Virus record (IMG/VR): IMGVR_UViG_3300015242_000020
Span: 32,001-96,000 of that record
Length of the DNA: 64,000 nucleotides
DNA from: a virus
Strand: one strand, 5' to 3'
Part shown: piece by piece, positions 27,280-50,829 of the stretch
Layout: every line of letters begins with the position of its first letter
Position numbering within the stretch: position 1 is the first letter of the stretch
Position numbers and translations under genes: made by a program
Notes under the pieces: model-generated
Databases searched by the model: none
Told to the model about the DNA's origin: nothing
The model's input: the letters and a program-made list of their open reading frames with translations, nothing else

Positions 27280-28428
27280 TTAGCCGCTGTGAGTAACAGC
27301 CCCAGAAGGAAGACCAGGTGCCACCACAGGCGCCGCCTCGGTTGAGGTGCTGGTGTAGTACTGGTTGATCGGCTGGGAGTACAACGGGTAGGCAGTCGGG
27401 TTGCCCAGAGGCACCGGCGAAAGGATCGTCTGGTTCGCAACCTTTGTAATGCTGGCGATACCGCGTGGGTTGAGAATCGCCATTGAGACGAACTCGTCCA
27501 TCACCCAGCCTCGGTAGAATTCCTCGACGTTGTTGTTCTCCTCGACGTCCAAGGAGTACAGCACCGGGAAGACACCCAGGAACTCCGGCTCCGGCAGCAG
27601 GTACACGGTGTTGCGAGGCACCATGACCGACCGCTGGATCTGGAACTCACCGAACGTGGTGATCTTCTGACCCGCGACCACTCGGTCCTTCATCGCCCAA
27701 CCGGTCTCGGCCTGCGGGAAGAGGTAGAAGTCCCGGTAGTCGGCCACGTTCATCAGCAGTCGGGCCGACTCGATCTCACGCAGGTCCGTCATCGTGACGG
27801 CGGTGTAGAGCGCCGCCGGGCTGATCGGGCCGTTGTCACCAATGACCACCGTCTGGGCACCCGGAGTGGGGTTGTCCGGCCGGGTGGCATAGGCGGTCAG
27901 GGCGGCCTGTAGCAGGATCATCAGCCGCGAGTCCTCTTGCTTGAGGATCGCCTGCTTCGACTCGTCCTGGGCGTGCTCGACCATATTGACCTTGAGCTGG
28001 TACAGGTCCTCTTTCCGGATCGCCGGACGGGAGGCGATACGGAAGAAGTCTACCCGAGTCCGCTTGCCCTCGAACGGGGTGACCCGGACCTCACCGTCGT
28101 GCCCAGAGAGCAGGTAAGCCTGTCCGAGGTCATCGATGATGTCGTAGACGGTCTCCGTACCGGGGGTGATCGGGTCTTCCAGCAGCACGTTGCGGACCAT
28201 GCCCTCGTACCGCAACTTCAGCTGGATCGGGCCAATCATGCCGACGCCAAGCCGGTGGAATCCGGCCACCCGGTCGGACATGATCTTTTCCATCCGCGCG
28301 GTCTTCTGCGCGGTGGTGGGCTTGGGCACGTTGCCCTGAGCGTCGGCGTGCTTCAGATACTCAGCAACGTAATCGTCGCTCTTCTTGGCGGTGCGGTACA
28401 TCCCACCGGCCAGGACTGGAGCCGTCAT
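27280..28428 (-). CDS. Major capsid protein (HK97 fold)
   Basis: PIQLKLRYEG.VRNVL, AQDESKQAILKQED, GWVMDE..SMAILNPRG; start revised to MTAPV. Confidence 0.88.
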   Translation of the reverse strand: MTAPVLAGGMYRTAKKSDDYVAEYLKHADAQGNVPKPTTAQKTARMEKIMSDRVAGFHRLGVGMIGPIQLKLRYEGMVRNVLLEDPITPGTETVYDIIDDLGQAYLLSGHDGEVRVTPFEGKRTRVDFFRIASRPAIRKEDLYQLKVNMVEHAQDESKQAILKQEDSRLMILLQAALTAYATRPDNPTPGAQTVVIGDNGPISPAALYTAVTMTDLREIESARLLMNVADYRDFYLFPQAETGWAMKDRVVAGQKITTFGEFQIQRSVMVPRNTVYLLPEPEFLGVFPVLYSLDVEENNNVEEFYRGWVMDEFVSMAILNPRGIASITKVANQTILSPVPLGNPTAYPLYSQPINQYYTSTSTEAAPVVAPGLPSGAVTHSG

Positions 28429-28462
28429 GCTTGTTCCTCTCTCAGTCTCTCGACGGGATGTG

Positions 28463-29029
28463 TTAGGCCGAAGCGCCGACGTCGCCGGTCTGCAGGCCAC
28501 CGATGCACAGCTGGCTGGCAGAGTCGACACGGATCAGTCGGGCGATGGCGCGGGTGGATCCGGTCGTGCCCTGCGGCACGAGCTTGCCTCGGTTGGCACC
28601 GGTGTTCGACGCCGAGATCAGCGCCACCGTGCCGTTGCCCGGGTCGGTCCAGGTCTTGGTGGTGTCGAATGCTGGTGCCTGCACGAGCGCCTCGCCATCA
28701 GGGTCGAGCACCCAGCAAGCCAGGGCGTTCACGTTGGCATCGAGCAGCTCGTCGATGCCGTCGCCGCCGATGTAGTTGCCGAAGAACCCGTACGGCACGC
28801 CGGTGGAGTTCACCAGCGTGACCAGGTCTCCGGTCGTCTTCATGGCGACCATGCCCGGCCAGATCGCGATCGAGCGGTCCCAGGCGGGGTCGAGAAACTT
28901 GTTCTGCGGGGTCGCCTGGGTCCATCCGTACTGGATTTTCCAGGGCCGAGACAAGTACGGCTTGGAAAGGGGTACACGTAGCACGCCATTCCCTCCTCTG
29001 TCAGATGTTCCTGTCGGGAGGAGTGGCAA
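28463..29029 (-). CDS. Capsid decoration/cement protein
   Basis: Lies between scaffold and MCP; IWPGMVAMK motif. Confidence 0.6.
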   Translation of the reverse strand: MPLLPTGTSDRGGNGVLRVPLSKPYLSRPWKIQYGWTQATPQNKFLDPAWDRSIAIWPGMVAMKTTGDLVTLVNSTGVPYGFFGNYIGGDGIDELLDANVNALACWVLDPDGEALVQAPAFDTTKTWTDPGNGTVALISASNTGANRGKLVPQGTTGSTRAIARLIRVDSASQLCIGGLQTGDVGASA

Positions 29030-29044
29030 TCCCGACTACTCCCT

Positions 29045-29083
29045 CTAGCCCTTGGGAAAGCCAAAACGCCTTAATCGACAGGG
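29045..29083 (-). promoter_or_regulatory. Late-promoter-like element
   Basis: CCCTGT-N22-CCAAGGGCTAG. Confidence 0.6.
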
Positions 29084-29107
29084 GGAGAGGTACTTCTATC
29101 TCGGCGT

Positions 29108-29155
29108 AAGAAAAGGCCCCCGGCTACTCCAGGGATGCGAGGAGTAGCCGGGGGC
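29108..29155 (-). terminator. Rho-independent terminator
   Basis: 15-bp GC stem followed by a T-run on the minus strand. Confidence 0.8.
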
Positions 29156-29179
29156 GGAACTGGGAGAGGGACAGAAATA

Positions 29180-32100
29180 CTAGATCAGGTCACCGAACTC
29201 TTCGGAGCTGACCGCACCGGTGGATGCCTGGGTGCGGATCCCACCGGCCAAGCTCGGCCGGGAGCGCTGACCCTCTGGCCGGTTCTGGGCCTGGGGAACC
29301 AAGTTGGTCGAGGCTGTGCGCTGAGTCTGGCGGGCCTGCGCCGCCGCGATCACCGTCTGCAGCTCCTGGCTGATCGCCTGGATAACCGGCAGCGGAGAGT
29401 CAGAGTCGGCGATCTTCTGGGCCGCCACCAGCTCATCCTCGGCCGAGATGCCGGCGGTGTTGCGGAGCTTGGCCAGATGCATCGCCGCGAACAGCCGGGT
29501 CTGCGGCTCCCCCTTAGAGGCCCAGGAGATGTTATCCGGGCCGCCAGTGTTGAAGCTGGAGGAGTTGTCCGCCGGCACCCCGACCACCACGTCGATGGGA
29601 GCCTTGGCGCCGTCTGGGCTGGGCACGTCATCCACACCCGGCTCGGCGGCCTGCACGTTCTCCTTCTCCGCGTTGTCCTCGGTCAGGTTGGTCGAGGTGG
29701 GCGCGGAGTCCACCGAGGTGGTCGCATCCGGCGTCACGTTGGTGTTGGCGCTGGAGGGGACCGAGCCGATGTTGGACGGATCATCCTTGGCGGCCGGCGC
29801 GCGCTCGGAGGCGTTGTCCTCAGAGGTCTTCTTCAGCGCCAGGTAGGCCTGCCGGCGGCGATCCCGCAGCGAGGAGGACTTGGAGGAGTCCGAGTCGCTG
29901 CCGCTGTCGGAGTCATCGTCGGAATCGTCATCGTCATGTTCGTCGCTGTCGGAGGAGTCCGAGTCGTCGTCGCTGTCGTCGTCAGAGTCGTCGTCCTTCT
30001 TGCCCGACTCATCGGACTTGGCGTCGGAACTGTCGTCGTCCTTCTTCTTGAACTGCGGCGGCATCTCCCCGGCGCTCTTCAGATAGGCCAGCAGCTGGTT
30101 CTGGCCGGCGACGATCTCTTCGATCTTCTCCCCCAGCGCGTCGATCCTCTTGTGGGCGTTCTGGGCTCGGGCAGCCGTGTTGTTGGTCATCCCAACTTCC
30201 TCTCGTGAAACCGTGGTACGGGGGTGACCGCTGCCCAGATAGAGCGGCGGTTGGGGACTTTCGTCATCCATCGGCTCGCCATCGTTGCGGTCCGCCTCTT
30301 GGGCCTTGCTGGTATCGGGGGTACCGAATGGCTCCGGCGGACCCTCCCAGCCACAGTTGGTGCACTGGTTGTTATTCCAGGAGTCCACATCGCCACAGAT
30401 GGGGCAGGCTTCCGGCAGCAGGGTGTTGACACTGGGCGGGGCGGTCTGGGCCGCCAGCGTGACGCTGAGGGCCGGGAGAACCCCCTGCTGTACGGCGATC
30501 CGGTTCTCCGGGGCATCTTCGCCGCGACCGAACTGCCGGTAATGCTGATTCGCCGCCGCCAGGGCCGAGTTCAGGTCGGGGTGCATTTCCTCCGACGTGT
30601 AGCTTCCGGCGCTCTCGCCGGGCTCGTCGTTGTTGTAGATCTGGTAGCGGTAGCCGTTGCTGCGCTGACCGGCATCGTCCTTTGTGAAGTACTGATGGAC
30701 TCGGCCCACCGGCCTACCGATCTGTGGGTCGTGCAGGACCATCATGCTCGGCTCGAACATGGAGGGCTGAGCGACCAGGTCAGCGGTCTTCCTCATGGAG
30801 GCGACCTTTCTGGAGGCGGCGTGGTATCCGGGACCGACCAGGTCCGGGTAGTGCTCCCCGGCGTAGGAGTTCCAGTCCTCGCCGGCCCGCACCCGGCCCC
30901 GTTCCCGGCCCAGACCCAGCGGCTTACCGGCGGCATGATCGGCCTCGGCGTTCTCCCGCTGCCGGACCAGCCAGGTGGTGGCCTGCACCTGGTGGGGATA
31001 CACCGGATGTCCGAGCTTGGCGGTGAGCTGGTCGGCGGCGTCCTTGTACTGCCGGACGAAGTGCCCGTAGTAGTGCCGGTTGGAGACCGGGGCACCTTCC
31101 AGGTCGTCATCAGTGAGCCGGCGCCCGGCCGCGACCGACATGGCGTGTCGGTCGACCACCACGTGCGGCTGAGTGGGGTCGGCATCCCCACCGTGCTCGA
31201 TCAGGTGCGCGAAGTCGGAGATCTTCGGGCTCTTCAGTACGTTCTCGTGCCGCTCCCCGTTGATGATCCGCTGCGCCTGATTGGCCATGGAGGCGGTCGC
31301 GAACACGCCGGAGCCCTTGCCACCGATCGCCTTCCCGGAGGACAGCGCGTGCGCGGCGTTGAGCATGTTCACCGGCCACAGCGTCTGCGGGGAGTAGGCC
31401 GCGAGCACTCCGGCGCCCTTGTGGGTGTTTCCGTTGCCCAGCGCCTTGGCCACGATCTGGGCGTCGGGGTACCAGCGGGAGCCCTGCTCGATGTCCTCGG
31501 GGGTGGCCCGGTTCCAGTGGTCCATGATGTTCTGCGAGCTGACCGGGTGAGTCTGAAACCACGGGTGCTGATCCGGTGCCCACTTCGGCCCGGCCGCTGC
31601 CGTACGGAGATCCTCCACCACGTCGGGCTCGACGCACATCGGCCGAAAGACGAACGCTAGTCTCGCAGCCAATGCCGGACGCACCAGATCCGGAACACCA
31701 CGGGTGTCGATGTCGAACATGTGCGCCGTTGGGTCTGCGGGATCCTCGACCAGAACTGAGTTTTCGAAGAAGTGCAGCCCGTGGCAGTCCTCGTAGACCA
31801 GCACGGCCTGCTTCTTGCCGTTGACGGTCTTCAGGACGCGCTGGCCCTTCATCCGGGCGATGTGGTTGCAGTACTGGGCGGGGGTCTCAGCCTTGTTGCC
31901 GCAGACCGAGCACAGCGTGTATGCCACGGCGGTGCCCATCGAGGTGCGGTCGACTTCGCCGGTGACGATGGCTTCGGCCAGCTTGGGAAACTTCACCGCG
32001 TCGATCGCCATCAACAGCTCGGTCCAGGTATCCGGGGTGTTGTTGGGGTTGGTGTCCTCGTGCAGGGCAGCGTCGACGATCACCCCACGCGCCCGGGAGA

Positions 32101-32350
32101 TGTCTTCGTTGTGGTGGTTGACAAAGACCGGCTTGCCGATGAAGGTGCGCCAGGCGGCCTTGATCTCCTCTGGCCGGAATCCGTCGTAGTTCTCGTTGAC
32201 TCGGCTGGAGATGGCCCGGCAGCGAACGTAGATGTGACCGGGCATCGGGTCGTAGACGAACTGGGTGCGCTGGGCGGTCTTGAGCGCGGCCTCCGGGGTG
32301 CGGGCGTCCTGAACGAGCCGCATCTGCGTCAGCGCGAACTTGACCAGCAC
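29180..32350 (-). CDS. Capsid maturation protease / scaffold polyprotein with inserted HhH-glycosylase-like domain
   Basis: RAISSRVNEN.DGF, FIGKPVFVNH, TSMG, FFENSVLVEDPAD protease-like motifs with a Zn ribbon; acidic C-terminal scaffold. Confidence 0.75.
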   Translation of the reverse strand: MLVKFALTQMRLVQDARTPEAALKTAQRTQFVYDPMPGHIYVRCRAISSRVNENYDGFRPEEIKAAWRTFIGKPVFVNHHNEDISRARGVIVDAALHEDTNPNNTPDTWTELLMAIDAVKFPKLAEAIVTGEVDRTSMGTAVAYTLCSVCGNKAETPAQYCNHIARMKGQRVLKTVNGKKQAVLVYEDCHGLHFFENSVLVEDPADPTAHMFDIDTRGVPDLVRPALAARLAFVFRPMCVEPDVVEDLRTAAAGPKWAPDQHPWFQTHPVSSQNIMDHWNRATPEDIEQGSRWYPDAQIVAKALGNGNTHKGAGVLAAYSPQTLWPVNMLNAAHALSSGKAIGGKGSGVFATASMANQAQRIINGERHENVLKSPKISDFAHLIEHGGDADPTQPHVVVDRHAMSVAAGRRLTDDDLEGAPVSNRHYYGHFVRQYKDAADQLTAKLGHPVYPHQVQATTWLVRQRENAEADHAAGKPLGLGRERGRVRAGEDWNSYAGEHYPDLVGPGYHAASRKVASMRKTADLVAQPSMFEPSMMVLHDPQIGRPVGRVHQYFTKDDAGQRSNGYRYQIYNNDEPGESAGSYTSEEMHPDLNSALAAANQHYRQFGRGEDAPENRIAVQQGVLPALSVTLAAQTAPPSVNTLLPEACPICGDVDSWNNNQCTNCGWEGPPEPFGTPDTSKAQEADRNDGEPMDDESPQPPLYLGSGHPRTTVSREEVGMTNNTAARAQNAHKRIDALGEKIEEIVAGQNQLLAYLKSAGEMPPQFKKKDDDSSDAKSDESGKKDDDSDDDSDDDSDSSDSDEHDDDDSDDDSDSGSDSDSSKSSSLRDRRRQAYLALKKTSEDNASERAPAAKDDPSNIGSVPSSANTNVTPDATTSVDSAPTSTNLTEDNAEKENVQAAEPGVDDVPSPDGAKAPIDVVVGVPADNSSSFNTGGPDNISWASKGEPQTRLFAAMHLAKLRNTAGISAEDELVAAQKIADSDSPLPVIQAISQELQTVIAAAQARQTQRTASTNLVPQAQNRPEGQRSRPSLAGGIRTQASTGAVSSEEFGDLI

Positions 32351-32379
32351 CCGGTACTCCCCAAAACGGCCGGCGTCTC

Positions 32380-32418
32380 CTACTCCTTCATCGAGGCGCC
32401 GGCCGTTTGGATACAGGG
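32380..32418 (-). promoter_or_regulatory. Late-promoter-like element
   Basis: CCCTGT-N22-TGAAGGAGTAG. Confidence 0.7.
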
Positions 32419-32419
32419 A

Positions 32420-32752
32420 TCAGGCCAGGTTGGGAGACACCTCAGCCCGGATGTACTGGTCCTCGATCTCGGTGGGAATCCGGCCGGTCCGGTGGATCTT
32501 GATCCCTCGGCCGACCGCCCAGGTACGGATCTGCAGCGGGTTGATGGTGCGCCGCATCTCCTCCCGGATCAGGTTCAGATCTTCAATCCGGCGGCCGGCC
32601 TCCAGGTACGGCTTGAAGATCTCTTTCAGTTCCTCGAAGTTGGTCGTGCTTAGGTCCAGGCTGACCACCCAGTCATTGACCCCGAGGACCACTCTGCACT
32701 CGCCAGGAAGGGTGGAGTCAAGATCGTCTACCACCTGAATGTGTTCAGCCAA
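32420..32752 (-). CDS. lsr2: Lsr2-like nucleoid-associated protein
   Basis: VVDDLD...LDLS..N...PY; IRTWA...G.KI...GRIP. Confidence 0.85.
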   Translation of the reverse strand: MAEHIQVVDDLDSTLPGECRVVLGVNDWVVSLDLSTTNFEELKEIFKPYLEAGRRIEDLNLIREEMRRTINPLQIRTWAVGRGIKIHRTGRIPTEIEDQYIRAEVSPNLA

Positions 32753-32983
32753 TTTCCGGCACCCCTCTAAGAATAATTACCGGTTAGCGGCTCAATGTAT
32801 CCGTCTGCGTGACAGTAGACAATCGGCTCATTGGGCCACTTCGAGCGACGGATGTGGCTCAAAGCGTCATCACGATCAGTGGGGTCATATCCCGCTGGGC
32901 GCTCATTCCTCAGTAACTGAAGGCCTGAGTCGTCCTCCCGGATCTGCCAGCCGGCGGTGTTCGCCCCGCCCTGGCGACGATGC

Positions 32984-33421
32984 CTAGCCACCGCAGGAGA
33001 CCTGCAGGTTCGGGTTGTTCGGTTCGGCATCGGCCTGTGCTGGACTCCAGTCGGCGACCTGGGACCAGGTCGCACCCTGCGGGGTGAAGACCTGGGTCTG
33101 GATGTTGTTGCCCTGCCCGTCAGGGACCTCATAGGTCCAGACGTCGTGGGCGGCCAGCACAGTGTGCCCGACGTAGGTGGCGTAGGGATCATCGGGGATC
33201 TGACACCAGCCGGCGACCGACCCACGCAGGTTGGTGCCGATCACGTCGATGCGGTTGGCGGGGAGGGAATCATCACCGGTCGAGCCGTGGTGAGCCAGGG
33301 CGAGCGGGAGCGCGATGGCGAGAGTAACCATGCCTGCTCCAACGAGGCTAAGCACGCCGAGGACACGGCTCCGGCCAAATCGACGTAAAAGGTAGACCCA
33401 GAGCTGCGCGGTCGTGGACAT
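32984..33421 (-). CDS. Membrane-anchored/secreted hypothetical protein
   Basis: N-terminal TM segment. Confidence 0.55.
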   Translation of the reverse strand: MSTTAQLWVYLLRRFGRSRVLGVLSLVGAGMVTLAIALPLALAHHGSTGDDSLPANRIDVIGTNLRGSVAGWCQIPDDPYATYVGHTVLAAHDVWTYEVPDGQGNNIQTQVFTPQGATWSQVADWSPAQADAEPNNPNLQVSCGG

Positions 33422-33570
33422 AGTTGTATCTCGCTTTCGGCGTTCAGGAGAGGGACGATCGAGTCTTGAGGTTATGACGCGGAGTCAGTGCGTCATTCCC
33501 AGCACGATGAAGATGGCCCACATGGCGACCCAGACGAGGAACGCTCCGGCGGCCAGACCGATCAGAAACT

Positions 33571-34131
33571 TCATGCTGCACTGACCTTGGGCTGCTTGAC
33601 GCCATACACGACCTCGTAGCAGTCAGGGCCAAAGCCGGTCGCCAGCGAGCTGGGATCGGAGAGGAACCTGCCGCAGCGCGAGCAGTGCTCAGTGGCCTCA
33701 CCATAGAGACGACCGGCCTCGGCTGGGTCCTCCGCGATCCGGACCAGGACCTGGTACTGGTCTGCGGTGGGCACGTCCAGCCGGACGCCACCGTGGGAAG
33801 TGATCGCGTTGACGAAGACCTTACCGGGCAGCCGGCCGCGCTTCACCTGAAAGAGGAGCGGGTGATTGCCGTCAGGGTCGTGAGGATTGGGCAGGGCATA
33901 GCGCGCCGGCTTGTCGGCCGGGAGCTTGAGGATGTCAGCGAGCTGGCCCCAGGTCAGGGAAGGGCGAACATTGACCCGAGGGGCTGGTAGGGCATCGGGC
34001 ACCTCCACGGTGGTGGAGTGCTGCCGGGTGGTCCGGGGGAGTACCCGGAAATCGTGCCGGGACGCGCAGGCCTTGACCTGCAGGGCGCGCTCGTGGCTGT
34101 CACCGCAGTAGTGGCAGTGGATCTCGGGCAT
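33571..34131 (-). CDS. Zinc-binding hypothetical protein (DUF6011-like C-terminus)
   Basis: CSRCGRFLSDPSSLATGFGPDC; start revised to MPEIHC. Confidence 0.7.
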   Translation of the reverse strand: MPEIHCHYCGDSHERALQVKACASRHDFRVLPRTTRQHSTTVEVPDALPAPRVNVRPSLTWGQLADILKLPADKPARYALPNPHDPDGNHPLLFQVKRGRLPGKVFVNAITSHGGVRLDVPTADQYQVLVRIAEDPAEAGRLYGEATEHCSRCGRFLSDPSSLATGFGPDCYEVVYGVKQPKVSAA

Positions 34132-34165
34132 GGGACGGACCTCCATCAAGGGACTGATGAAGTCG

Positions 34166-34194
34166 AGACTATCTAGGAATCCTTAGATTGTCAA
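34166..34194 (-). promoter_or_regulatory. SigA-like promoter with operator box
   Basis: TTGACA-N17-TAGTCT; CTAAGGATTCCTAG in spacer. Confidence 0.8.
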
Positions 34195-34607
34195 TCGTCG
34201 TCGCGGCGCCGGCCACGGACTGCCGATCGGCTCTTGGCCTGCTCCACCCGAGCCTTGATGTAGCGCCGCCGCTGCACCTGCAGAATCAGATACAACGCCA
34301 CCACGGAGCCGGCGTAGATGGCCACGTTTGGGTAGGTCCAGGCGGCGATCCCGACCTTGCCCACCCCTCGAAAGATGATCTTCCAGGAGATCTCGGTGGC
34401 CATCGCATCGAACACACCGGTGATCACCATGACGTGCCACCACAGCACCCGGTAGGCGCCGAGGTCACGCCTGATCCGGGAGTAGATCCGGCGGATCCGG
34501 AGTGCATACCAGCAGACCCAAAAGCTCTGGGCCAGCAGCACGCCCCACAGCGCGATCGTGATGGCACGCAGGCCGTCGGCCAGCCAGAGGTGAGGAAGGG
34601 CATTCAT
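34191..34607 (-). CDS. Membrane protein (3 TM, possible holin-like)
   Basis: Hydrophobic segments, basic C-tail. Confidence 0.5.
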   Translation of the reverse strand: MNALPHLWLADGLRAITIALWGVLLAQSFWVCWYALRIRRIYSRIRRDLGAYRVLWWHVMVITGVFDAMATEISWKIIFRGVGKVGIAAWTYPNVAIYAGSVVALYLILQVQRRRYIKARVEQAKSRSAVRGRRRDDD

Positions 34608-35122
34608 CGCGCTCGCCTCTTCGGGGGATGGTCACCGTTGTCACCGTTCTCGTCGGGATCACGACGGGGCAGCCGGCGCACCGGAGGGTCGTCGTCCTCA
34701 TCACGATCCCGGCTGCGCCGCTTGCGTTCGCGGGACTCGATCTCCTTCAGCTCGGCGAGCAGGTCCTCCTTGCGCCCGGTATCGGAGACGAGATCGTCCT
34801 TTTCGTCGGTCTCATCGAAGCGGATCTGGCGTCGGATCGTGTCGGAGATCTCCTTCTCATCGGCGGCCCGGTCGTTGTTGGCCTGCAGGAATGCCGGCAG
34901 CCCCAGCATCGCGGCGTAGAGCAGCAGCAGAGTGGGCCGGTCGATCGTGGTGAAGATGGTCTCGTAGGCCAGGCCGGCCAGGCCGGCGATAAAGAGCACG
35001 ATGTCGCGGATCAGCGGAAAGGACCAGGCCTTGTATCGCTTTCTCGGCCGCCGCCTCACCATCATTGACTCGCCCGCCTCATCCATCAGGTGCAGCTGAC
35101 GCGCCCACATCGAGGAGGGCAA
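34604..35122 (-). CDS. Membrane protein (2 TM, charged tail; start uncertain)
   Basis: Hydrophobic segments; late-type element upstream. Confidence 0.5.
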   Translation of the reverse strand: MPSSMWARQLHLMDEAGESMMVRRRPRKRYKAWSFPLIRDIVLFIAGLAGLAYETIFTTIDRPTLLLLYAAMLGLPAFLQANNDRAADEKEISDTIRRQIRFDETDEKDDLVSDTGRKEDLLAELKEIESRERKRRSRDRDEDDDPPVRRLPRRDPDENGDNGDHPPKRRAR

Positions 35123-35134
35123 ATCGAAGCTTCC

Positions 35135-35173
35135 CTACCTCTTAGCATTCCCAACGATCTCGGCTACGCAGGG
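35135..35173 (-). promoter_or_regulatory. Late-promoter-like element
   Basis: CCCTGC-N22-CTAAGAGGTAG. Confidence 0.6.
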
Positions 35174-35195
35174 CAGGAATGTCGCCACCCTGCGG

Positions 35196-35684
35196 TCACA
35201 GCCCGAAGCCCCACTCCGCATCGTCGTCCTCCGGCATCTGCTCGTAGTGGGTGCCGGTCAGATCCATCAGGTGAGTGGCCCGGGTGCCACCGTCGCCCTC
35301 GTTGATCAGGGCGTCCTTCTCGGCGGGGGTGAAGTTGCGCAGCGCCTGGCGCACGTGGGCGTACTGGCGCTCAGCCCGGGTGGCGTAGGCCATGTTGCCG
35401 AGCGGCTGGCCGTAGCTCGGCTCGTCCTCCTCCTCATCCCCGTAGGCGATCGGCAGCGCCGGGGAGGGCAGGTCACCCAGCTCCTCAGGGACCACCACGG
35501 CCTGGTGACTGGCGCGCATCCCGGTCAGACCGATCATCGGGTCATAGGTGGGATAGACGATGCGGTTGCCGTCCACGGGGTCTCCATTGCCGTCGAGGAT
35601 CTCTTCACCGGCCGGATGGTGGGCGGAGGAGTCGATGCTGAAGCGTTGCACGACACCATCGAGCTTGCCCTCAAACTGGGTCAT
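35196..35684 (-). CDS. Acidic hypothetical late protein
   Basis: FTPAEKDALINEG...RA...DLTGTHY motif. Confidence 0.55.
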   Translation of the reverse strand: MTQFEGKLDGVVQRFSIDSSAHHPAGEEILDGNGDPVDGNRIVYPTYDPMIGLTGMRASHQAVVVPEELGDLPSPALPIAYGDEEEDEPSYGQPLGNMAYATRAERQYAHVRQALRNFTPAEKDALINEGDGGTRATHLMDLTGTHYEQMPEDDDAEWGFGL

Positions 35685-35711
35685 AGTTCTATCTCCCGCC
35701 AGCGGCCTCTT

Positions 35712-35749
35712 CTACTCTTTCGCCGGGACTCGGGACGTGCCCAACAGGT
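35712..35749 (-). promoter_or_regulatory. Late-promoter-like element
   Basis: ACCTGT-N21-CGAAAGAGTAG. Confidence 0.55.
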
Positions 35750-45714: not shown

Positions 45715-46216
45715 GCTGCCTCCGGGCCTTGACCCGGGCGATTACCCGGGCGCGGTCATGATCGGCGAAGTGGATGGCCAGGTGGTCCAGATAGTCCGGG
45801 AGCGCCAGCAGCGCACCGGTCTGGGTGCGCATCATCGGCGGGCCGTCCTGCGGCTCGTCAGACTCTCCCGGTGATTCCTCGGCGCCAGGATCACCCATGC
45901 CGTGATCGGCATCCGGACCGATCGGGCCCGCACCCCCGCCGGCAGAGGCAGCGTTGGGGTCGGCAGGAGCCGTGGGGTCTTGACCGGGCACCTGCTGGCC
46001 CTGGTCATTGAGCTGTGGCTCGCCAGCGTTGAGTTGGTCGGGCTCTTGCGGCATCGCCGGAAACTGCGGCTGGATCCGGACCGTGTAGCTGCGCTGGCAG
46101 AAGCCACAGTGGATCGAGCCGTCGGAGGTGCCGTTCAGGTTGCCACTCCCGCACCATGGGCAGTGTGCAGTGACCGCATCGTCGTCGGATTCGTGCGCAA
46201 TCTTGAGGCTAGCCAT
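45707..46216 (-). CDS. Zinc-ribbon protein
   Basis: HCPWCGSG...CGFC. Confidence 0.6.
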   Translation of the reverse strand: MASLKIAHESDDDAVTAHCPWCGSGNLNGTSDGSIHCGFCQRSYTVRIQPQFPAMPQEPDQLNAGEPQLNDQGQQVPGQDPTAPADPNAASAGGGAGPIGPDADHGMGDPGAEESPGESDEPQDGPPMMRTQTGALLALPDYLDHLAIHFADHDRARVIARVKARRQRG

Positions 46217-46703
46217 CGTCCCCGTCCGGGTCGTAGTGGGCGGCGTTGCGCAGCAGTAGTGCCGAGGCCAGGGAGACCACCTGGTCCTGCTCCTCGGTGT
46301 CCAGTACGGCCATCACCGGTGCCAGAGAGGGGTCAGAGCGCACCCGGCCGGCCACAAAGTCAGCGGCCTCCTCCGCGATCGTGGCCAGGTCATCGAGTAC
46401 CCCGGCCTCCCCGAGCGCATGGATCAGGCCCTCCTCACCGGAGGAAGCCACCGTCTCCCGGACGGCAGTCACCGAGATCGGGGGTGGCGCATCCAGTGAG
46501 TCGGCCAGGAGCGAGCGCTCAACGGCCTCTGTGGCCATCAGCTGACCGAGGGAAAGGTATTGCACCCGGCCGGCCGCTTTCCCGGTGGAAAACAGCACGT
46601 GGCCGCCATCCCCGGAGATGGACAGCAGCCGGCCGCAGTCGTTGGCCCGCAGCACTCCCTGCGGCCCTCCGACGTAGCGGACCCGGGCACCTTCGATGAG
46701 CAT
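46209..46703 (-). CDS. Hypothetical protein
   Basis: Start revised to MLIEG (TGATG coupling). Confidence 0.55.
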   Translation of the reverse strand: MLIEGARVRYVGGPQGVLRANDCGRLLSISGDGGHVLFSTGKAAGRVQYLSLGQLMATEAVERSLLADSLDAPPPISVTAVRETVASSGEEGLIHALGEAGVLDDLATIAEEAADFVAGRVRSDPSLAPVMAVLDTEEQDQVVSLASALLLRNAAHYDPDGDDG

Positions 46704-48778
46704 CAGGCCCGTACCAGCTCCGGATGGGCCCGGATGGTCTGGGTGGCTACCGCGACGCACTGTCGCAGCGTCAGGCTGGGATTGGAGGCCAGCACGTCGG
46801 AGGCGATCTGGTCGATCTTCTCCATCGGGCTCTGGTACTTGGCTCCGGTGGTGGCCGGGGTGTTGGCCTGGGAGAAATCATCGGAGGGGGAGGGGAGTGG
46901 CGCCATCGAGGTGCCATCGGCTGCCGCACCGGACTCCAGCGCCGGATTCGGCAGCGCATCCCCGAGCTGCCCACCACTGGAGGTGTCGCCGAACTGGCTG
47001 GAGGCATCAGGGGTCAGACCCAGCTGGCCAGGGTCATCATCAGGGGAGGGCATCGTGCCCATGGAGGCCGGGTTGCCCGGACCGTTGACCGTGAACGGGT
47101 TGTCAGCGGTGATGGTCAGCGTGGTCGGCACCTGCCAGGTCAGGTTGGTGTTGCTGACGTTGGTCGCCGATCCGGTCATGATGGTGCTCACCACCGAGGG
47201 CTGACTGACCTTTAGCGACTCCTCGGCCACCAGCCACGGCGCGCTGGGCTTCAGCTCGTTGCCGTCGGCGGTGTTCTTCACCTCGGTGTCTCCCAGCGGT
47301 ACCCGATTGGCGTCGGTGTACTCGTCATGGATCCAGCCAGGCGTGGCCGGTGGATCAACATGCTGGTACCGGTCGGCACCGAAGGCGTCCTCGTTGAGCG
47401 CGACCGGATGGAAGGCACCCTCCTTGTCGAGGTAGCCCCAGTTCATGCCGGAGTGCTTAGACCACTCCATGGCCCGGAACGCCGCCTCGGCCTTCTCCTG
47501 CGAGTCGTGGTGGGAGAGCACTTTGCCGGTGCCCTTCTGGGTGATCACCCACTCATCGCCACGCTTCTCGATGTACTGATTGGCCGACTTCAGCAGCGCA
47601 TGTACGAGGTTGCGGCCGACCAACTCCTCGACCCGGGCGCGGGCTTCCTCCTTCGTGGGGTGGGTGCCCATCACCTGCGGGATGCCATGCTCATTGATGA
47701 TCGCCGAGTGCCAGCCATCGCCCGGCTTGGCCTCGGCCACCCGGGGGGCGCGACCCAGCTTGTTGCCGTGCACGTCGTAGAGGGCGTCCCCGTTCCAGGT
47801 CATCCAGTTCTCCGCTCGCGCGGTCTTGGTGGCCTGGCGTCCCTGCTCCTGCACGGCGGCCGGTGCCGGCTCTCCGTGGTGGCGTTCGGCCTTCTCGGCG
47901 GCATCGGGCACATTGGCGTACAGCGCCGCCTGCTGCGCGAGTGCCTGCGCCTTGGTCGGGTGGGTGCCCTTGACGTCACCGATCGCATTGACCACCTTGA
48001 ACTTCCCGGCGTCCTCACGGACGTAGTACGGCGCGTTGTCTGAGGTGACCTGTAGCGAGCCCTGCACGTAGGGGTCGGGGTCGGCCGGCTCGGAGTGGTC
48101 GTCATACCAGCCCGGGTTCATCTTCTGATCCTGGGCGGCCTCCTGGCCCTTCTCTACGCCGCTCTGGTAGTCGGGGTGACCACCGTGCTCGGCCAGGCCG
48201 GCGTTGTCGTCGTAGAGACCGTCCTCGTAGCCGGAGTCATACCGGGCCTGGTCGAATGGATGCTGCACGTCGGAGGGATCGATCTCCCCGTCGGCCTCAA
48301 CCGTAAAATTTGGCTCCCGCCCCAGCGCCAGGGAGTACAGCTCGGTGAGATCGGCCAGGTCGACCGGGTCAGTGCTGGCCAGCGCCAGTGCCTCGATCTC
48401 CTCGGCGAGTGCCTCGGCAATCTCACCCCGAGTGGCGAGCTGATGCAGCGGCCCATCCTCATCGGCCCAGTCAGCGGCCAGGGTCTTGATCCGGGCGTCC
48501 ACCTTGGCCTGCAGCAGCAGGCCGTGGTCCTCCTTCAGGGAGGTGCGCACCTGATCCAGTAGCGCGGTGTCCTCCGGGGAGACCTGTGCCACCGCCTCGG
48601 TGACCCGGTCGGCCACCAGCATGTACCGGGCGTCGTACTCTCCGGGCGATCCGGCGGCGGCCAGGAATGCCCACGCCACCTGCTGGGCGGCGACCTTGGC
48701 CATGGCGTACACGCGCTGGTTCTGCTCGGCGGCGACATCGGTGGCTGCCGTGCTCCACATCATCTCGCTGGCGTCCAT
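46703..48778 (-). CDS. Large multidomain head-region protein
   Basis: Three G.H.T/S..A repeats; RBS AAGGAG. Confidence 0.65.
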   Translation of the reverse strand: MDASEMMWSTAATDVAAEQNQRVYAMAKVAAQQVAWAFLAAAGSPGEYDARYMLVADRVTEAVAQVSPEDTALLDQVRTSLKEDHGLLLQAKVDARIKTLAADWADEDGPLHQLATRGEIAEALAEEIEALALASTDPVDLADLTELYSLALGREPNFTVEADGEIDPSDVQHPFDQARYDSGYEDGLYDDNAGLAEHGGHPDYQSGVEKGQEAAQDQKMNPGWYDDHSEPADPDPYVQGSLQVTSDNAPYYVREDAGKFKVVNAIGDVKGTHPTKAQALAQQAALYANVPDAAEKAERHHGEPAPAAVQEQGRQATKTARAENWMTWNGDALYDVHGNKLGRAPRVAEAKPGDGWHSAIINEHGIPQVMGTHPTKEEARARVEELVGRNLVHALLKSANQYIEKRGDEWVITQKGTGKVLSHHDSQEKAEAAFRAMEWSKHSGMNWGYLDKEGAFHPVALNEDAFGADRYQHVDPPATPGWIHDEYTDANRVPLGDTEVKNTADGNELKPSAPWLVAEESLKVSQPSVVSTIMTGSATNVSNTNLTWQVPTTLTITADNPFTVNGPGNPASMGTMPSPDDDPGQLGLTPDASSQFGDTSSGGQLGDALPNPALESGAAADGTSMAPLPSPSDDFSQANTPATTGAKYQSPMEKIDQIASDVLASNPSLTLRQCVAVATQTIRAHPELVRA

Positions 48779-48807
48779 GCGGGGTTACTCCTTGTGTGAT
48801 GTGGGGA

Positions 48808-50829
48808 TCAGGCGTCCATGCCGACGTAGACCTCGCGTACCGGGGTCTGTACGTAGTCCTCGCTGGCGATCTCGGCGGCGATGACCATCAGGTCGCCATC
48901 CACCCAGATCGTGCCGCTACGGCTCGCTGAAGCCGCCAGCTCGTGGTCCCGGGAAGCGGTGGCGATCATCTGGTCGGTGCGGGCGTCATACAGGCTGGCC
49001 TTGGTGGCTCCGGGGGTTTCCGGGCTGCTCATCGTCTGCGGGTCGCCATCAGGGGCGTCGGGCCACTCACCCTCATCGCCGGGCCCGAGGGAGACCGAGT
49101 CGTTGGGGTCTGCGATCGGGGTGAAGTCCACACCGGAATTCAGTCCATCGGGCTCCGGGGTGACGGCGGTCTTCGCGCTGTTGTTGCGAATGGACTCGTT
49201 GTTGGCCTGCCCGCTCCAGGGCGACGACGCCATATCGACCTTCCAGTTCGCGTTAGCTGCCTCATCGGCGTTGCGGAACTGGCTGCGCACCTTCTGGATC
49301 GCATGCTCAGGACCGTGTCCGGCCGGTACGGAGACTGTCTCGGAGTGCTTGGCGCCGGAGGGATGGGTGAACGAGACCTGGTACTGGCGACCGGCACCAC
49401 TGGGACTGTTGGCGCTGACTTCCTCATCGTTGGCCTCACCGCTCCACGGAGAGGCAGCGGCGGCCTTCGGCGCCGACATCGACTGGGTGGCCTTGACGAA
49501 CCGGCCGGAGTCGAACTTGGGGTTTCCCTGGGCGAAGTGATCGGCGAAGTGCTTGGCGACGGAGTCCTTGTCGCCCGGGTAGGAGGCGATCGCGTTCGCC
49601 ACGTGCTGGTAGTGGCCCCGGCTGTAGTTGGCCGTGCCAACGCCGCCACGCACCTGGTATCCCTTGGACCCGGCGGCCTGCTGAAACTGGTCGCGGCGGT
49701 AGTGCGGGTTGGTGCCCATCAGGTGGTCAGCGAAGTGCTTGGCCAGCTGGTCGCGCTCGGGGTGGGTGGCAATCGTCGAGGCCAGGTCCTCGTAGTGCCG
49801 GCGAGCCCAGGCCACGGCGAGCCGCTCCATCAAGGCTTGGCGCTTGGCGCCCATCGAACGCACCGTGCCCGAGGGAGGCAGCACGGTCGGGCTGGCTGGG
49901 GTGTTGTCCACCGTCGGGGTGGCATCGCCGGAGTCACCGGCGTTGTTCTCCACGGCCGAGTCCGAGATCGGGTCGCCGCCACCGTCACCGGCCGGTTCGT
50001 TGCCCTCACCGAGGGAGAGGTTGTCGCTCGGGTCGGAGTGGGCCACCTCAGCGTCACCGGTGGGGGCCGGTGCGTTGATGTCATCCATCGGCTCGGATTC
50101 CACCAGCGGGGCGGTGATGGTGTCGTTGTTCGGGGTGGTGAGCATGTCGTTGGCGACCGTGTGGCCGGCCAGGTGACCCACGTGGTCCAGAAAGGTGCGC
50201 TGGGCAACCCCGGCGTCCTCACCGAACTGGCTGGCCAAGTGCGCAGACATGCCGATCGCCTGGATAGCGAACTCCTCATGGTCGTCCCGGATCGCCTGGG
50301 CGGTGCGGGTGAACCACATGCTGGCCTCGGCGACCATCTTCTGGTCGCGCTCCATCGCGGTGTGCTCCGGCGCCTCCACATCCATGATCCAGTCCGAGGC
50401 CATCGAGGTGCGGATGGTGCCCGGGTTGGGGTTGTGGCTCCAGCGGTCCTGCGGCGCCTGGCTTTCGAAGTTCAGGCTGGCCTCATACCGCTGGGTGCTG
50501 ATCCGCTCACTGCGGAGGTTCTCCAGCTCGGCGGCCAGGGTGCGCTGGGTCTGCAGGGTGGACGCGGCGGCCATGGCCTGCAGCAGGTCTACCTCCCGCT
50601 GCCGTGGCGAGATAGTTGTATCCGCCGCCTGCTCGGTGGACGCGGTCTTCTGCGGGGCACTTTGCATGCTCTGCTCCTGAGATTGAGCCATCTGCCGGCG
50701 GATTTTCTTCTGGTCACTGGAGGGGGCCCGACGGATGACCGACGGCAGCCGGCCACCCATGGGCTCGAACGTGGGCTCGTCCTCGGGGTCGACCCGCTTG
50801 GAGCGCGCTGCCACGTGGTGCTTGCCCAC
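48808..50829 (-). CDS. Large multidomain head-region protein
   Basis: Tandem HY...A..IA...LAKHFADH...NP.F/Y repeats; late-type element upstream. Confidence 0.65.
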   Translation of the reverse strand: MGKHHVAARSKRVDPEDEPTFEPMGGRLPSVIRRAPSSDQKKIRRQMAQSQEQSMQSAPQKTASTEQAADTTISPRQREVDLLQAMAAASTLQTQRTLAAELENLRSERISTQRYEASLNFESQAPQDRWSHNPNPGTIRTSMASDWIMDVEAPEHTAMERDQKMVAEASMWFTRTAQAIRDDHEEFAIQAIGMSAHLASQFGEDAGVAQRTFLDHVGHLAGHTVANDMLTTPNNDTITAPLVESEPMDDINAPAPTGDAEVAHSDPSDNLSLGEGNEPAGDGGGDPISDSAVENNAGDSGDATPTVDNTPASPTVLPPSGTVRSMGAKRQALMERLAVAWARRHYEDLASTIATHPERDQLAKHFADHLMGTNPHYRRDQFQQAAGSKGYQVRGGVGTANYSRGHYQHVANAIASYPGDKDSVAKHFADHFAQGNPKFDSGRFVKATQSMSAPKAAAASPWSGEANDEEVSANSPSGAGRQYQVSFTHPSGAKHSETVSVPAGHGPEHAIQKVRSQFRNADEAANANWKVDMASSPWSGQANNESIRNNSAKTAVTPEPDGLNSGVDFTPIADPNDSVSLGPGDEGEWPDAPDGDPQTMSSPETPGATKASLYDARTDQMIATASRDHELAASASRSGTIWVDGDLMVIAAEIASEDYVQTPVREVYVGMDA

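Follow-up and report, generated by a model that had tools for sequence, protein, structure and literature searches.

The prohead protease gp21 of phage T4 cuts after the Glu of a short motif, Leu/Ile-x-Glu, which is found on capsid, scaffold and packaged proteins (gp23, gp22, IPI-III, Alt). The consensus of the giant phages is small-x-Glu, and herpesvirus proteases cleave between Ala and Ser. Here, a short motif of a different kind is described from the head module of a soil phage, in a stretch of 64,000 nucleotides (positions 32,001 to 96,000 of IMG/VR virus record IMGVR_UViG_3300015242_000020; hereafter the window). An initial annotation of the window had pointed out [K/R/H]-[T/V/Q/E]-A linkers at the domain boundaries of head-region proteins, and had proposed that the phage's prohead protease cuts there and releases swappable enzyme modules that are packaged and injected. 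On the evidence set out below the motif is best written as a basic residue, then Thr (less often Phe, Gln, Glu or Val), then Ala, usually followed by Ala or Ser. It is probably the recognition site of the phage's own protease, an enzyme of the assemblin/gp21 fold that would cut a cargo of polyvalent proteins.

Packaged enzymes such as T4 Alt, an ADP-ribosyltransferase (ART), undergo trimming within the head. They then reach the host by injection (Iyer et al., 2017, PMC5512222). In the giant phages phiKZ (gp175), 201phi2-1 and SPN3US (gp245), a single prohead protease processes numerous head and ejection proteins at a consensus, as shown by virion mass spectrometry (PMC5694885; PMC7411985; PMC10052503). 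Herpesvirus pUL26 consists of an N-terminal protease, a cleavage site after it, the scaffold, and a second site near the C-terminus that frees the scaffold from the capsid protein (PMC4498786). Polyvalent proteins are large, contain many unrelated modules (GNAT and ART domains are typical), are encoded beside portal and packaging genes and are predicted to be packaged; release of their domains by embedded peptidases, including assemblin-like ones, has been proposed (Iyer, Burroughs, Anand, de Souza and Aravind, 2017, PMC5512222). In that paper the word “linker” does not occur, “cleavage site” occurs solely in a reference title, and no junction motif is described. A survey of actinobacteriophage capsid proteins states that their cleavage sites were not predictable (10.1101/2022.09.09.507160). 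Consensus-motif processing of heads (T4, phiKZ-like phages) and the idea that peptidases release polyvalent domains are already known; the basic-Thr-Ala junction motif appears to be new, as the literature searches turned up no paper that describes it, and none that reports cleavage of virion proteins in Bxz1-type, E3-type or related phages, for which supplementary virion peptide lists could be informative. The literature search likewise returned no virion proteomic data for this lineage.

As in T4 and phiKZ-type systems, a short motif is enriched in the head proteins of this phage, with copies in the capsid protein, in the scaffold and within the protease, and the protease is predicted to share the gp21 fold. 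The x-x-Glu motif of those systems is not the one found, Glu being only a minor choice at the middle position (2.0x). Because the enriched motif is basic-Thr-Ala, without Glu, the system would work as those of T4 and phiKZ do but with a different code. The protease also differs from that of T4 in being fused to a DUF7178 domain and a scaffold; T4 cargo comes as single proteins with an N-terminal targeting peptide, that of the present phage as strings of ten modules. The giant phages belong to a different lineage, and here the system is known from computation and its substrates are shuffled polyvalent proteins. The likeness to herpesvirus pUL26 lies in the layout of the protease-scaffold fusion and in fold matches to herpesvirus proteases, and the presumed cut after Ala, with Ser or Ala next, resembles the Ala-Ser rule. 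However, the first motif position is basic here and aliphatic in pUL26, extra domains are inserted, and the same code is also found on cargo other than the scaffold. Three traits of polyvalent proteins are present as well: several unrelated effector-type domains per polypeptide, portal-adjacent genes and recombined modules. In the account of Iyer et al. (2017), the assemblin-like domain is C-terminal in polyvalent proteins, whereas here it is N-terminal in a separate scaffold fusion.

Enrichment of the motif in head proteins

Seven head-region proteins (5403 amino acids (aa); hereafter the head set) were compared with the remaining 32,353 aa of the genome. KTA ranks first among all 8000 tripeptides in the head set, with 10 occurrences where the composition of the individual proteins predicts 1.35 (Poisson p 1.7e-6, or about 0.013 when corrected for 8000 tests), and is at its expected frequency in the rest of the genome (7 against 7.2). 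With any basic first residue, [KRH]TA is found 18 times in the head set (4.6 expected) and 24 times elsewhere (25.9 expected). All of the sites that the initial annotation listed, including TKTAR, QKTAS, AKTAV and YRTAKK, were re-derived and translated and lie where it placed them. Three other large proteins encoded by the genome, of 1337, 1263 and 1099 aa, contain one site each at most.

The broad form [KRH][TVQE]A occurs 38 times in the head set against 18.3 expected, but this is driven by the Thr form, as the forms with Val, Gln or Glu taken alone (20 against 13.7, p 0.066) are not significantly enriched. Within this phage, Thr is the sole statistically secure middle residue. The motif as first annotated is thus upheld here for Thr and not for Val, Gln or Glu, although Thr, Phe, Gln and Glu are all enriched in the wider family described below. 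Outside the head set, the longer forms [KRH]TA[GAS] (2 against 6.7, p 0.036) and [KRH][TEQ]A[AGS] (9 against 15.1, p 0.065) are somewhat infrequent, and elsewhere in the window the broad motif has a weak deficit (10 against 23 by shuffling).

The order of the residues matters. Of the six orders in which a basic residue, Thr and Ala can stand, basic-Thr-Ala alone is enriched. Its ratio is 3.9x in this phage, 2.4x in the 124 proteins examined from related loci and 1.7x in the 149 distant homologues, and those of the remaining five lie between 0.64 and 1.74 across these sets. The 18 [KRH]TA sites are encoded by 11 different 9-mers, of which the commonest (AAGACCGCC) accounts for five; the commonest 9-mers are found only 1-6 times per strand genome-wide. 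The signal is therefore one of protein and not of DNA, and a DNA-level origin was ruled out on these grounds. A second candidate cleavage tag, [L/F]SSG, was dropped because it occurs once in the genome.

Conservation in related phages and distant homologues

Related loci were collected by way of the portal (twelve) and the protease (seven); these are numbered L001-L019, L002 and L011 being dropped as duplicates of L001 and L010. Genes in them were called from open reading frame (ORF) length and third-position G+C. They share the layout of the present phage, with giant proteins around the portal. In 61 proteins from 10 of the loci, KTA occurs 31 times against 8.9 expected (p 7e-9), a count that includes homologous positions and so is not fully independent; it ranks tenth among tripeptides, and at least one of the words above it (FYW) is a conserved portal word. 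Across 17 non-redundant uncultured loci, [KRH]TA[AGS] is present 77 times against 13.9 expected (summed from the per-locus table).

Two cultured phages have the same bias. In Mycobacterium phage MoMoMixon (91 of 154.6 kb examined), the head module contains 11 [KR]TA[GAS] sites, mainly R-T-A-G, against 0.96 expected, and the other 19,091 aa contain 2 against 2.9. In Gordonia phage Pupper, [KRH]TA occurs 10 times against 3.1 in five head-module proteins (p 0.0015) and 4 times against 4.0 in nine others. Upstream of the MoMoMixon head module, the 236-aa protein gp78 (record positions 27946-28656 of that phage, L020) has three RTA sites against 0.17 expected, and may therefore also be a head-associated substrate.

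The most detailed profile of the motif comes from distant homologues. Residues 600-1769 of the 1769-aa polyvalent protein were compared by HMMER with 1.8 billion representative proteins. This gave 1175 relatives, the best 149 of which (203,339 aa, mostly giant multi-module proteins) were used for statistics. In these 149 proteins, [KRH]xA[AGS] is enriched with Thr (145 against 36.3), Gln (65 against 26.2) and Glu (120 against 58.8) in the middle, and not with Ser, Asp, Asn, Ala or Gly. By position, the preferences are Lys 5.2x, Arg 3.6x and His 3.5x at the first residue; Thr 4.0x, Phe 2.7x, Gln 2.5x and Glu 2.0x at the second; Ala 4.0x at the third; and Ala 5.9x and Ser 5.3x at the fourth. The Thr, Gln and Glu of the annotated motif are therefore borne out in the wider family. 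A preference spread over four positions resembles the subsites of a protease, and the Ala or Ser at the fourth, together with the herpesvirus analogy, suggests that the scissile bond would lie after the third-position Ala.

The protease-scaffold fusion

The candidate protease is encoded between the portal and major capsid protein genes, at the N-terminus of a 1056-aa polyprotein (29180-32350; this and all other head-protein genes and sites described here are on the minus strand). The polyprotein comprises the protease, a DUF7178 domain, a zinc-ribbon-like segment, an acidic Asp/Ser-rich tract and a scaffold-like C-terminal region, which aligns with separate or fused scaffold-like proteins of relatives. 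Residues 54-207 match the head maturation protease family phrog_18299 (E 3.6e-28). PHROG protease families are the only ones matched: the Pfam searches returned no protease family, Peptidase_S78 of the HK97 gp4 type included, for the whole protein (E<=0.01) or for residues 1-260 (E<=1), and a sequence search of the PDB with the protease domain gave a chance hit only.

Residues 1-260 were modelled with AlphaFold 2 (AF2) from an alignment of 39 sequences, and the mean predicted local distance difference test score (pLDDT) is 84.3. The folded domain covers residues ~30-235 (31646-32263); residues 1-25 and those beyond 238 are unstructured, with pLDDT below 50 after 238. Structural comparison by VIA-align places T4 gp21 first (5jbl_A, Z 10.7, root-mean-square deviation 2.7 over 126 residues), followed by the proteases of varicella-zoster virus (1vzv_A, Z 10.1), human cytomegalovirus (Z 7.9) and Kaposi's sarcoma-associated herpesvirus (Z 6.7), and the next, unrelated match has a Z of 6.1. 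The top 13 Foldseek matches listed are all herpesvirus proteases or gp21, with weak E-values of 0.02-0.1. Candidate catalytic residues stand out in the alignment of 39 protease sequences: H79 and S137 do not vary, and conservation of H163 is 90% or more. The model thus gives the catalytic domain the predicted fold of T4 gp21 and herpesvirus assemblin. No HExxH motif is present in any head-module protein, so no rival protease of the zincin type is evident.

Motif copies flank this domain on both sides. KTA 24-26 (32273-32281) is at the border between the disordered N-terminus and the protease fold; close homologues keep this site as [KR]-x-A-[H/A/S]-R, and it is missing from a group of free-standing proteases of ~220 aa. 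RTA 249-251 (31598-31606) follows the fold directly and is a candidate release site. It recurs as RTA in L013, L014 and L017 amid a linker that is otherwise not conserved. The inserted domain that comes next (residues 272-464, 30959-31537) belongs to DUF7178 (PF23802, E 3.5e-36), and beyond it lies RKVASMRKTA (residues 514-523), with KVA at 515-517 and KTA at 521-523 (30782-30790). The bracketing of the inserted domain by the motif is therefore as first annotated, with RTA249 on one side and KTA521 on the other.

A candidate maturation site, RTA 1011-1013 (29312-29320), is 46 residues from the C-terminus. All eight aligned scaffold C-termini have a basic-x-Ala-small site, 39-47 residues from the end, in the variants RTAS, KAAS, KTAG (twice), QVAS, KQAS, RQAS and RHAV. 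The acidic Asp/Ser-rich tract is of low complexity (29876-30040, residues ~771-825) and is situated between the zinc-ribbon-like segment and the scaffold-like C-terminal region.

Module joints of the 1769-aa polyvalent protein

The 1769-aa protein (35749-41058) is made up of about ten modules. A GNAT domain is found at residues 318-418 (Acetyltransf_1; 22.9 bits on the fragment searched, the cut-off being 20.7), and residues 613-902 form a widespread module of ~290 aa; besides GNAT, there are at least five further modules, each with a separate homologue set. A Pfam scan of nine fragments of the protein returned GNAT only. Where fragment residues are given below, they are numbered within residues 600-1769.

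Most sites coincide with borders that were defined independently of the motif. Toward the N-terminus, HTA 162-164 (40567-40575) is followed by a domain match that begins at residue 165, and KVA 311-313 (40120-40128) is placed between a domain end at 307 and the GNAT start at 318. Module 446-605 has KFA 445-447 (39718-39726) at its start and KVA 596-598 (39265-39273) at its end; the former was absent from the initial annotation and carries the middle Phe that is enriched 2.7x in homologues. KTA 906-908 (38335-38343) is at the end of module 613-902, where HMMER stretches stop at fragment residues 298-312. VTA 1022-1024 (37987-37995), with a non-basic first position, coincides with the end and start of HMMER stretches at fragment residues 425-429. 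At HTA 1209-1211 (37426-37434) they stop at fragment residues 616-618, and the homologous C-flanks read x-[TV]-A-[SG] in five of five cases, with a first-position His in four. KTA 1596-1598 (36265-36273) separates modules 1302-1595 and 1599-1769 (HMMER stretches on the two sides meet there, with ends at fragment residues 999-1000 and starts at 1001-1006), and its homologous flanks read K-[T/E/Q]-A-[A/S] in all four cases. KTA 1299-1301 (37156-37164) is the one listed site that no independently drawn border marks. Seven of the eight sites originally listed are thus within ~10 residues of a border drawn from PHROG, BLAST or HMMER match ends or from a drop in AlphaFold confidence, and their assignment to module boundaries holds.

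The same is seen in a larger sample. Of 125 sites in large proteins (87 in all, from this phage and its relatives), 29% fall no more than 5 residues from the end of a BLAST segment, compared with 13% of all positions (p 1.8e-6), so that the prospect raised with the initial annotation, a motif no commoner at boundaries than elsewhere, is not what was found. Four main control motifs have no bias to segment ends, and the reversed ATK, with only 8 sites, is not significant. Linker composition as a cause was ruled out by these control motifs and by the residue-order permutations. Downstream flanks of module 613-902 homologues contain [KRH]xA[AGS] in 33 of 92 cases against a background of 11% (p 3e-10), HLKEAS and HHKTAA being typical.

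Are the segments between these sites enzymes, and are they exchangeable? Both had been claimed, and the answers differ. The GNAT of this protein and the 2H phosphoesterase of the 636-aa protein reach Pfam cut-offs, but most of the other modules have no recognized enzymatic family. An ART-like identity for module 613-902 was considered and not established, the Foldseek hits to ADP-ribosyltransferase toxins being weak (E>=0.15), and VIA-align of the model of residues 600-1769 is dominated by a helical hairpin. Exchange is better founded: the same modules are found at different positions in relatives' proteins and also as free-standing proteins, and the modules can be called swappable because they are shuffled among relatives and exist as separate genes. 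The AF2 model of residues 600-1769 (mean pLDDT 54.8) is confident for the first module alone. Its pLDDT is below 50 from fragment residue 308, and KTA 906-908 corresponds to fragment residues 307-309; the comparison of AlphaFold boundaries with motif positions, suggested at the outset, is therefore favorable at this joint, but the other modules are modelled with low confidence.

Many free-standing homologues of module 613-905 (P0173, P0199, P0212, P0220, P0230 and P0236, apparently from lower-G+C phages) share a leader of the form M-N-W-Y-K-x-A-Q, which may be a different targeting or processing signal.

Sites in the capsid, portal and other head proteins

The major capsid protein (27280-28530; phrog_2522 major head protein, E 1.2e-93; 53-62% identity to the capsid proteins of L014-L019) is an ORF of 416 aa from a GTG codon, with a likely start at Met34 (28431). 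An RTA within YRTAKK (28387-28395) lies 13-15 residues after Met34, and seven aligned capsid proteins share this N-terminal site in the form G-R-[T/I/V/F]-A-[K/R], at a distance of 12-15 residues from the start. A second site, KTA at ORF residues 76-78 (28297-28305), is not conserved in relatives. The PDB sequence search with the capsid protein returned one relative, 6wkk, whose match begins at query residue 57 and so is uninformative on the N-terminal site.

The portal protein (717 aa, 43561-45714; phrog_2833, E 3.2e-128) does not contain any [KRH]TA. It has KFA at residues 62-64 (45523-45531), which aligns with [KR]-[KT]-T-[A/G] in relatives, ~15-20 residues before the conserved portal core. 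Three of the related loci have portal ORFs of 958-1007 aa (L006:2451-5327, L008:2277-5300 and L009:5072-7963) against ~705 aa elsewhere; those of L006 and L008 leave the portal alignment directly after a conserved Cys, which looks like an intein-type insertion.

The 636-aa protein (41664-43574) consists of an N-terminal domain, a 2H phosphoesterase (PF13563, E 2.1e-8, 34.8 bits, residues 148-254) and further modules. RTA 61-63 and KTA 65-67, within RTASKTAE (residues 61-68, 43374-43394), come after the N-terminal domain, and the phosphoesterase is bracketed, as had been noted, by KQA 116-118 (HKQAD, 43221-43229) upstream and KEA 313-315 (ASKEAG, 42630-42638) downstream. The N-terminal ~85 residues (2-85, 43320-43574) correspond to the conserved N-terminus of the giant post-portal protein of relatives, and the same domain occurs free-standing as proteins of 111-115 aa (L013:3047-3382 and L017:1852-2199). 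It may serve as a capsid- or portal-targeting handle for cargo proteins.

Two further head-module proteins contain the motif. A 691-aa protein (46703-48778) has KTA 318-320 (47819-47827), and a 673-aa protein (48808-50829) has KTA 61 (50641-50649), HTA 156 (50356-50364), RTA 175 (50299-50307) and KTA 553 (49165-49173).

Proposed mechanism and alternative explanations

The placement of the sites (at the flanks of the protease, the C-terminal end of the scaffold and the N-termini of capsid and portal proteins) matches known cut positions of prohead and assemblin proteases, and supports the view that the motif is a cleavage site. From the sequence statistics and models we infer cutting, packaging and injection along the following lines. 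The protease-scaffold polyprotein and the large polyvalent proteins would be built into the prohead, where the protease would free itself by cuts at KTA24 and RTA249. A cut at KTA521 would remove the inserted DUF7178 domain, and one at RTA1011 would detach the last ~45 residues of the scaffold, which probably hold the shell, and so free the scaffold. The N-termini of the capsid and portal proteins would be trimmed, and the 1769-, 636-, 691- and 673-aa proteins would be cut at their module joints, the first into a predicted ten or so fragments of roughly 10-34 kDa. The released modules would remain inside the head and be carried into the host alongside the DNA.

Several observations weigh against this account. 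Strict [KRH]TA is not avoided genome-wide (24 against 25.9 outside the head set), and the Val, Gln and Glu forms are not secure in this phage. Relatives, in whose counts homologous positions recur, have not kept the RTA/KTA site that follows the N-terminal domain of the 636-aa protein. Upstream flanks of module 613-902 homologues are not enriched (11 of 118 against the 11% background). Free-standing homologues of module ~613-905 have the motif in only 2 of 23 leaders and 1 of 23 tails, an absence that fits a mere linker as well as it fits cleavage. Because AF2 is confident for a single module, linker disorder is demonstrated at one joint only. Lastly, very large proteins just downstream of the portal in three relatives have no basic-[T/E/Q]-A-small site (L001:13073-18844, 1923 aa; L004:4549-7779, 1076 aa; L005:11994-15278, 1094 aa), and cutting is therefore not predicted for every big head-module protein.

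Some of these points would suit a joint that is conserved but uncut, i.e., a capping, hinge or docking element at module ends, to which scaffold or portal might bind during loading while the big proteins stay whole. In favor of this are the concentration of the motif at module joints, its rarity in free-standing homologues, and the fact that its strict form is not avoided elsewhere in the genome. A hinge, however, leaves the sites at the capsid and portal N-termini, the protease flanks and the scaffold C-terminus unexplained, as well as the order-dependent preference at four positions, and this explanation is considered unlikely. Another is that cleavage does take place but is carried out by a host protease or an unrecognized phage enzyme, or occurs only after injection and not in the prohead. 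No observation connects the motif with the active site of the enzyme of assemblin fold, and embedded peptidases that process polyvalent proteins before or after delivery are discussed by Iyer et al. (2017, PMC5512222). Yet the gp21/assemblin-fold domain is the only recognizable peptidase of the head module, and the motif both flanks that domain and marks the classic prohead substrates, which makes a different enzyme or a later cut quite improbable. An origin of the motif by chance, from the composition of linkers or from recombination of the DNA at joints during module shuffling is very improbable and largely refuted: the BLAST segment ends clustered within 5 residues of sites and the 9-mer shared by five of the 18 sites are in its favor, but KTA ranks first of 8000 with no other residue order enriched, 11 rarely used 9-mers encode the sites, the bias recurs in two cultured phages and 149 distant homologues, and sites are also found in unshuffled proteins (the capsid protein and the scaffold C-terminus).

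Cleavage by the phage's own prohead protease, if true, would provide a simple rule to predict, for a whole group of actinobacteriophages that includes the well-studied cluster C (Bxz1-type), which mature proteins make up the virion and which effectors are injected, and would join two separate fields, prohead-protease maturation and polyvalent proteins. It would also supply a mechanism for free module swapping, because each cassette would bring or meet a standard joint. If the specificity for Ala before the cut were confirmed, the capsid proteases of phages and herpesviruses would have one more functional trait in common. A broader proposal is put forward tentatively, as possible and somewhat doubtful: that Bxz1-like actinobacterial myoviruses share a code of basic-(T/F/Q/E)-Ala, cut before Ala, Ser or Gly and read by an assemblin-fold enzyme whose Ala-Ser specificity comes from a common ancestor with the herpesvirus proteases; that this code both matures the capsid and makes the polyvalent proteins polyproteins of injected effectors; and that polyvalent proteins of head modules are generally protease-coded cargo with lineage-specific codes.

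Genome context and neighboring genes

The source genome is a single contig of 135,564 bp with ~64% G+C, and 125 of its 147 called ORFs are on the minus strand. A nucleotide-level search against a phage collection gave no match. The phage is related to the Bxz1 group of mycobacteriophages, and its portal has only 30-35% identity to those of Gordonia phage Pupper, Rhodococcus phages Finch and E3, and cluster C (Bxz1-type) mycobacteriophages. Genes of polyvalent type are located on both sides of the portal gene, a layout that is also seen in L001-L019, MoMoMixon and Pupper.

A 162-aa protein (35196-35684) is encoded beside the 1769-aa gene. By BLAST, its last ~60 residues match the extreme C-termini of two giant polyvalent proteins of relatives (L005:15345-20447 and L004:7842-12422), with C-terminal matches to phrog_30974 and phrog_2940 as well. 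Because of this match, one ancestral giant protein has seemingly been split over three genes, encoding the 636-, 1769- and 162-aa proteins. Among the small genes between the protease fusion and the 1769-aa gene, one encodes a 192-aa protein (33571-34149) with a C-terminal zinc-finger-like domain of DUF6011 (E 5.7e-12).

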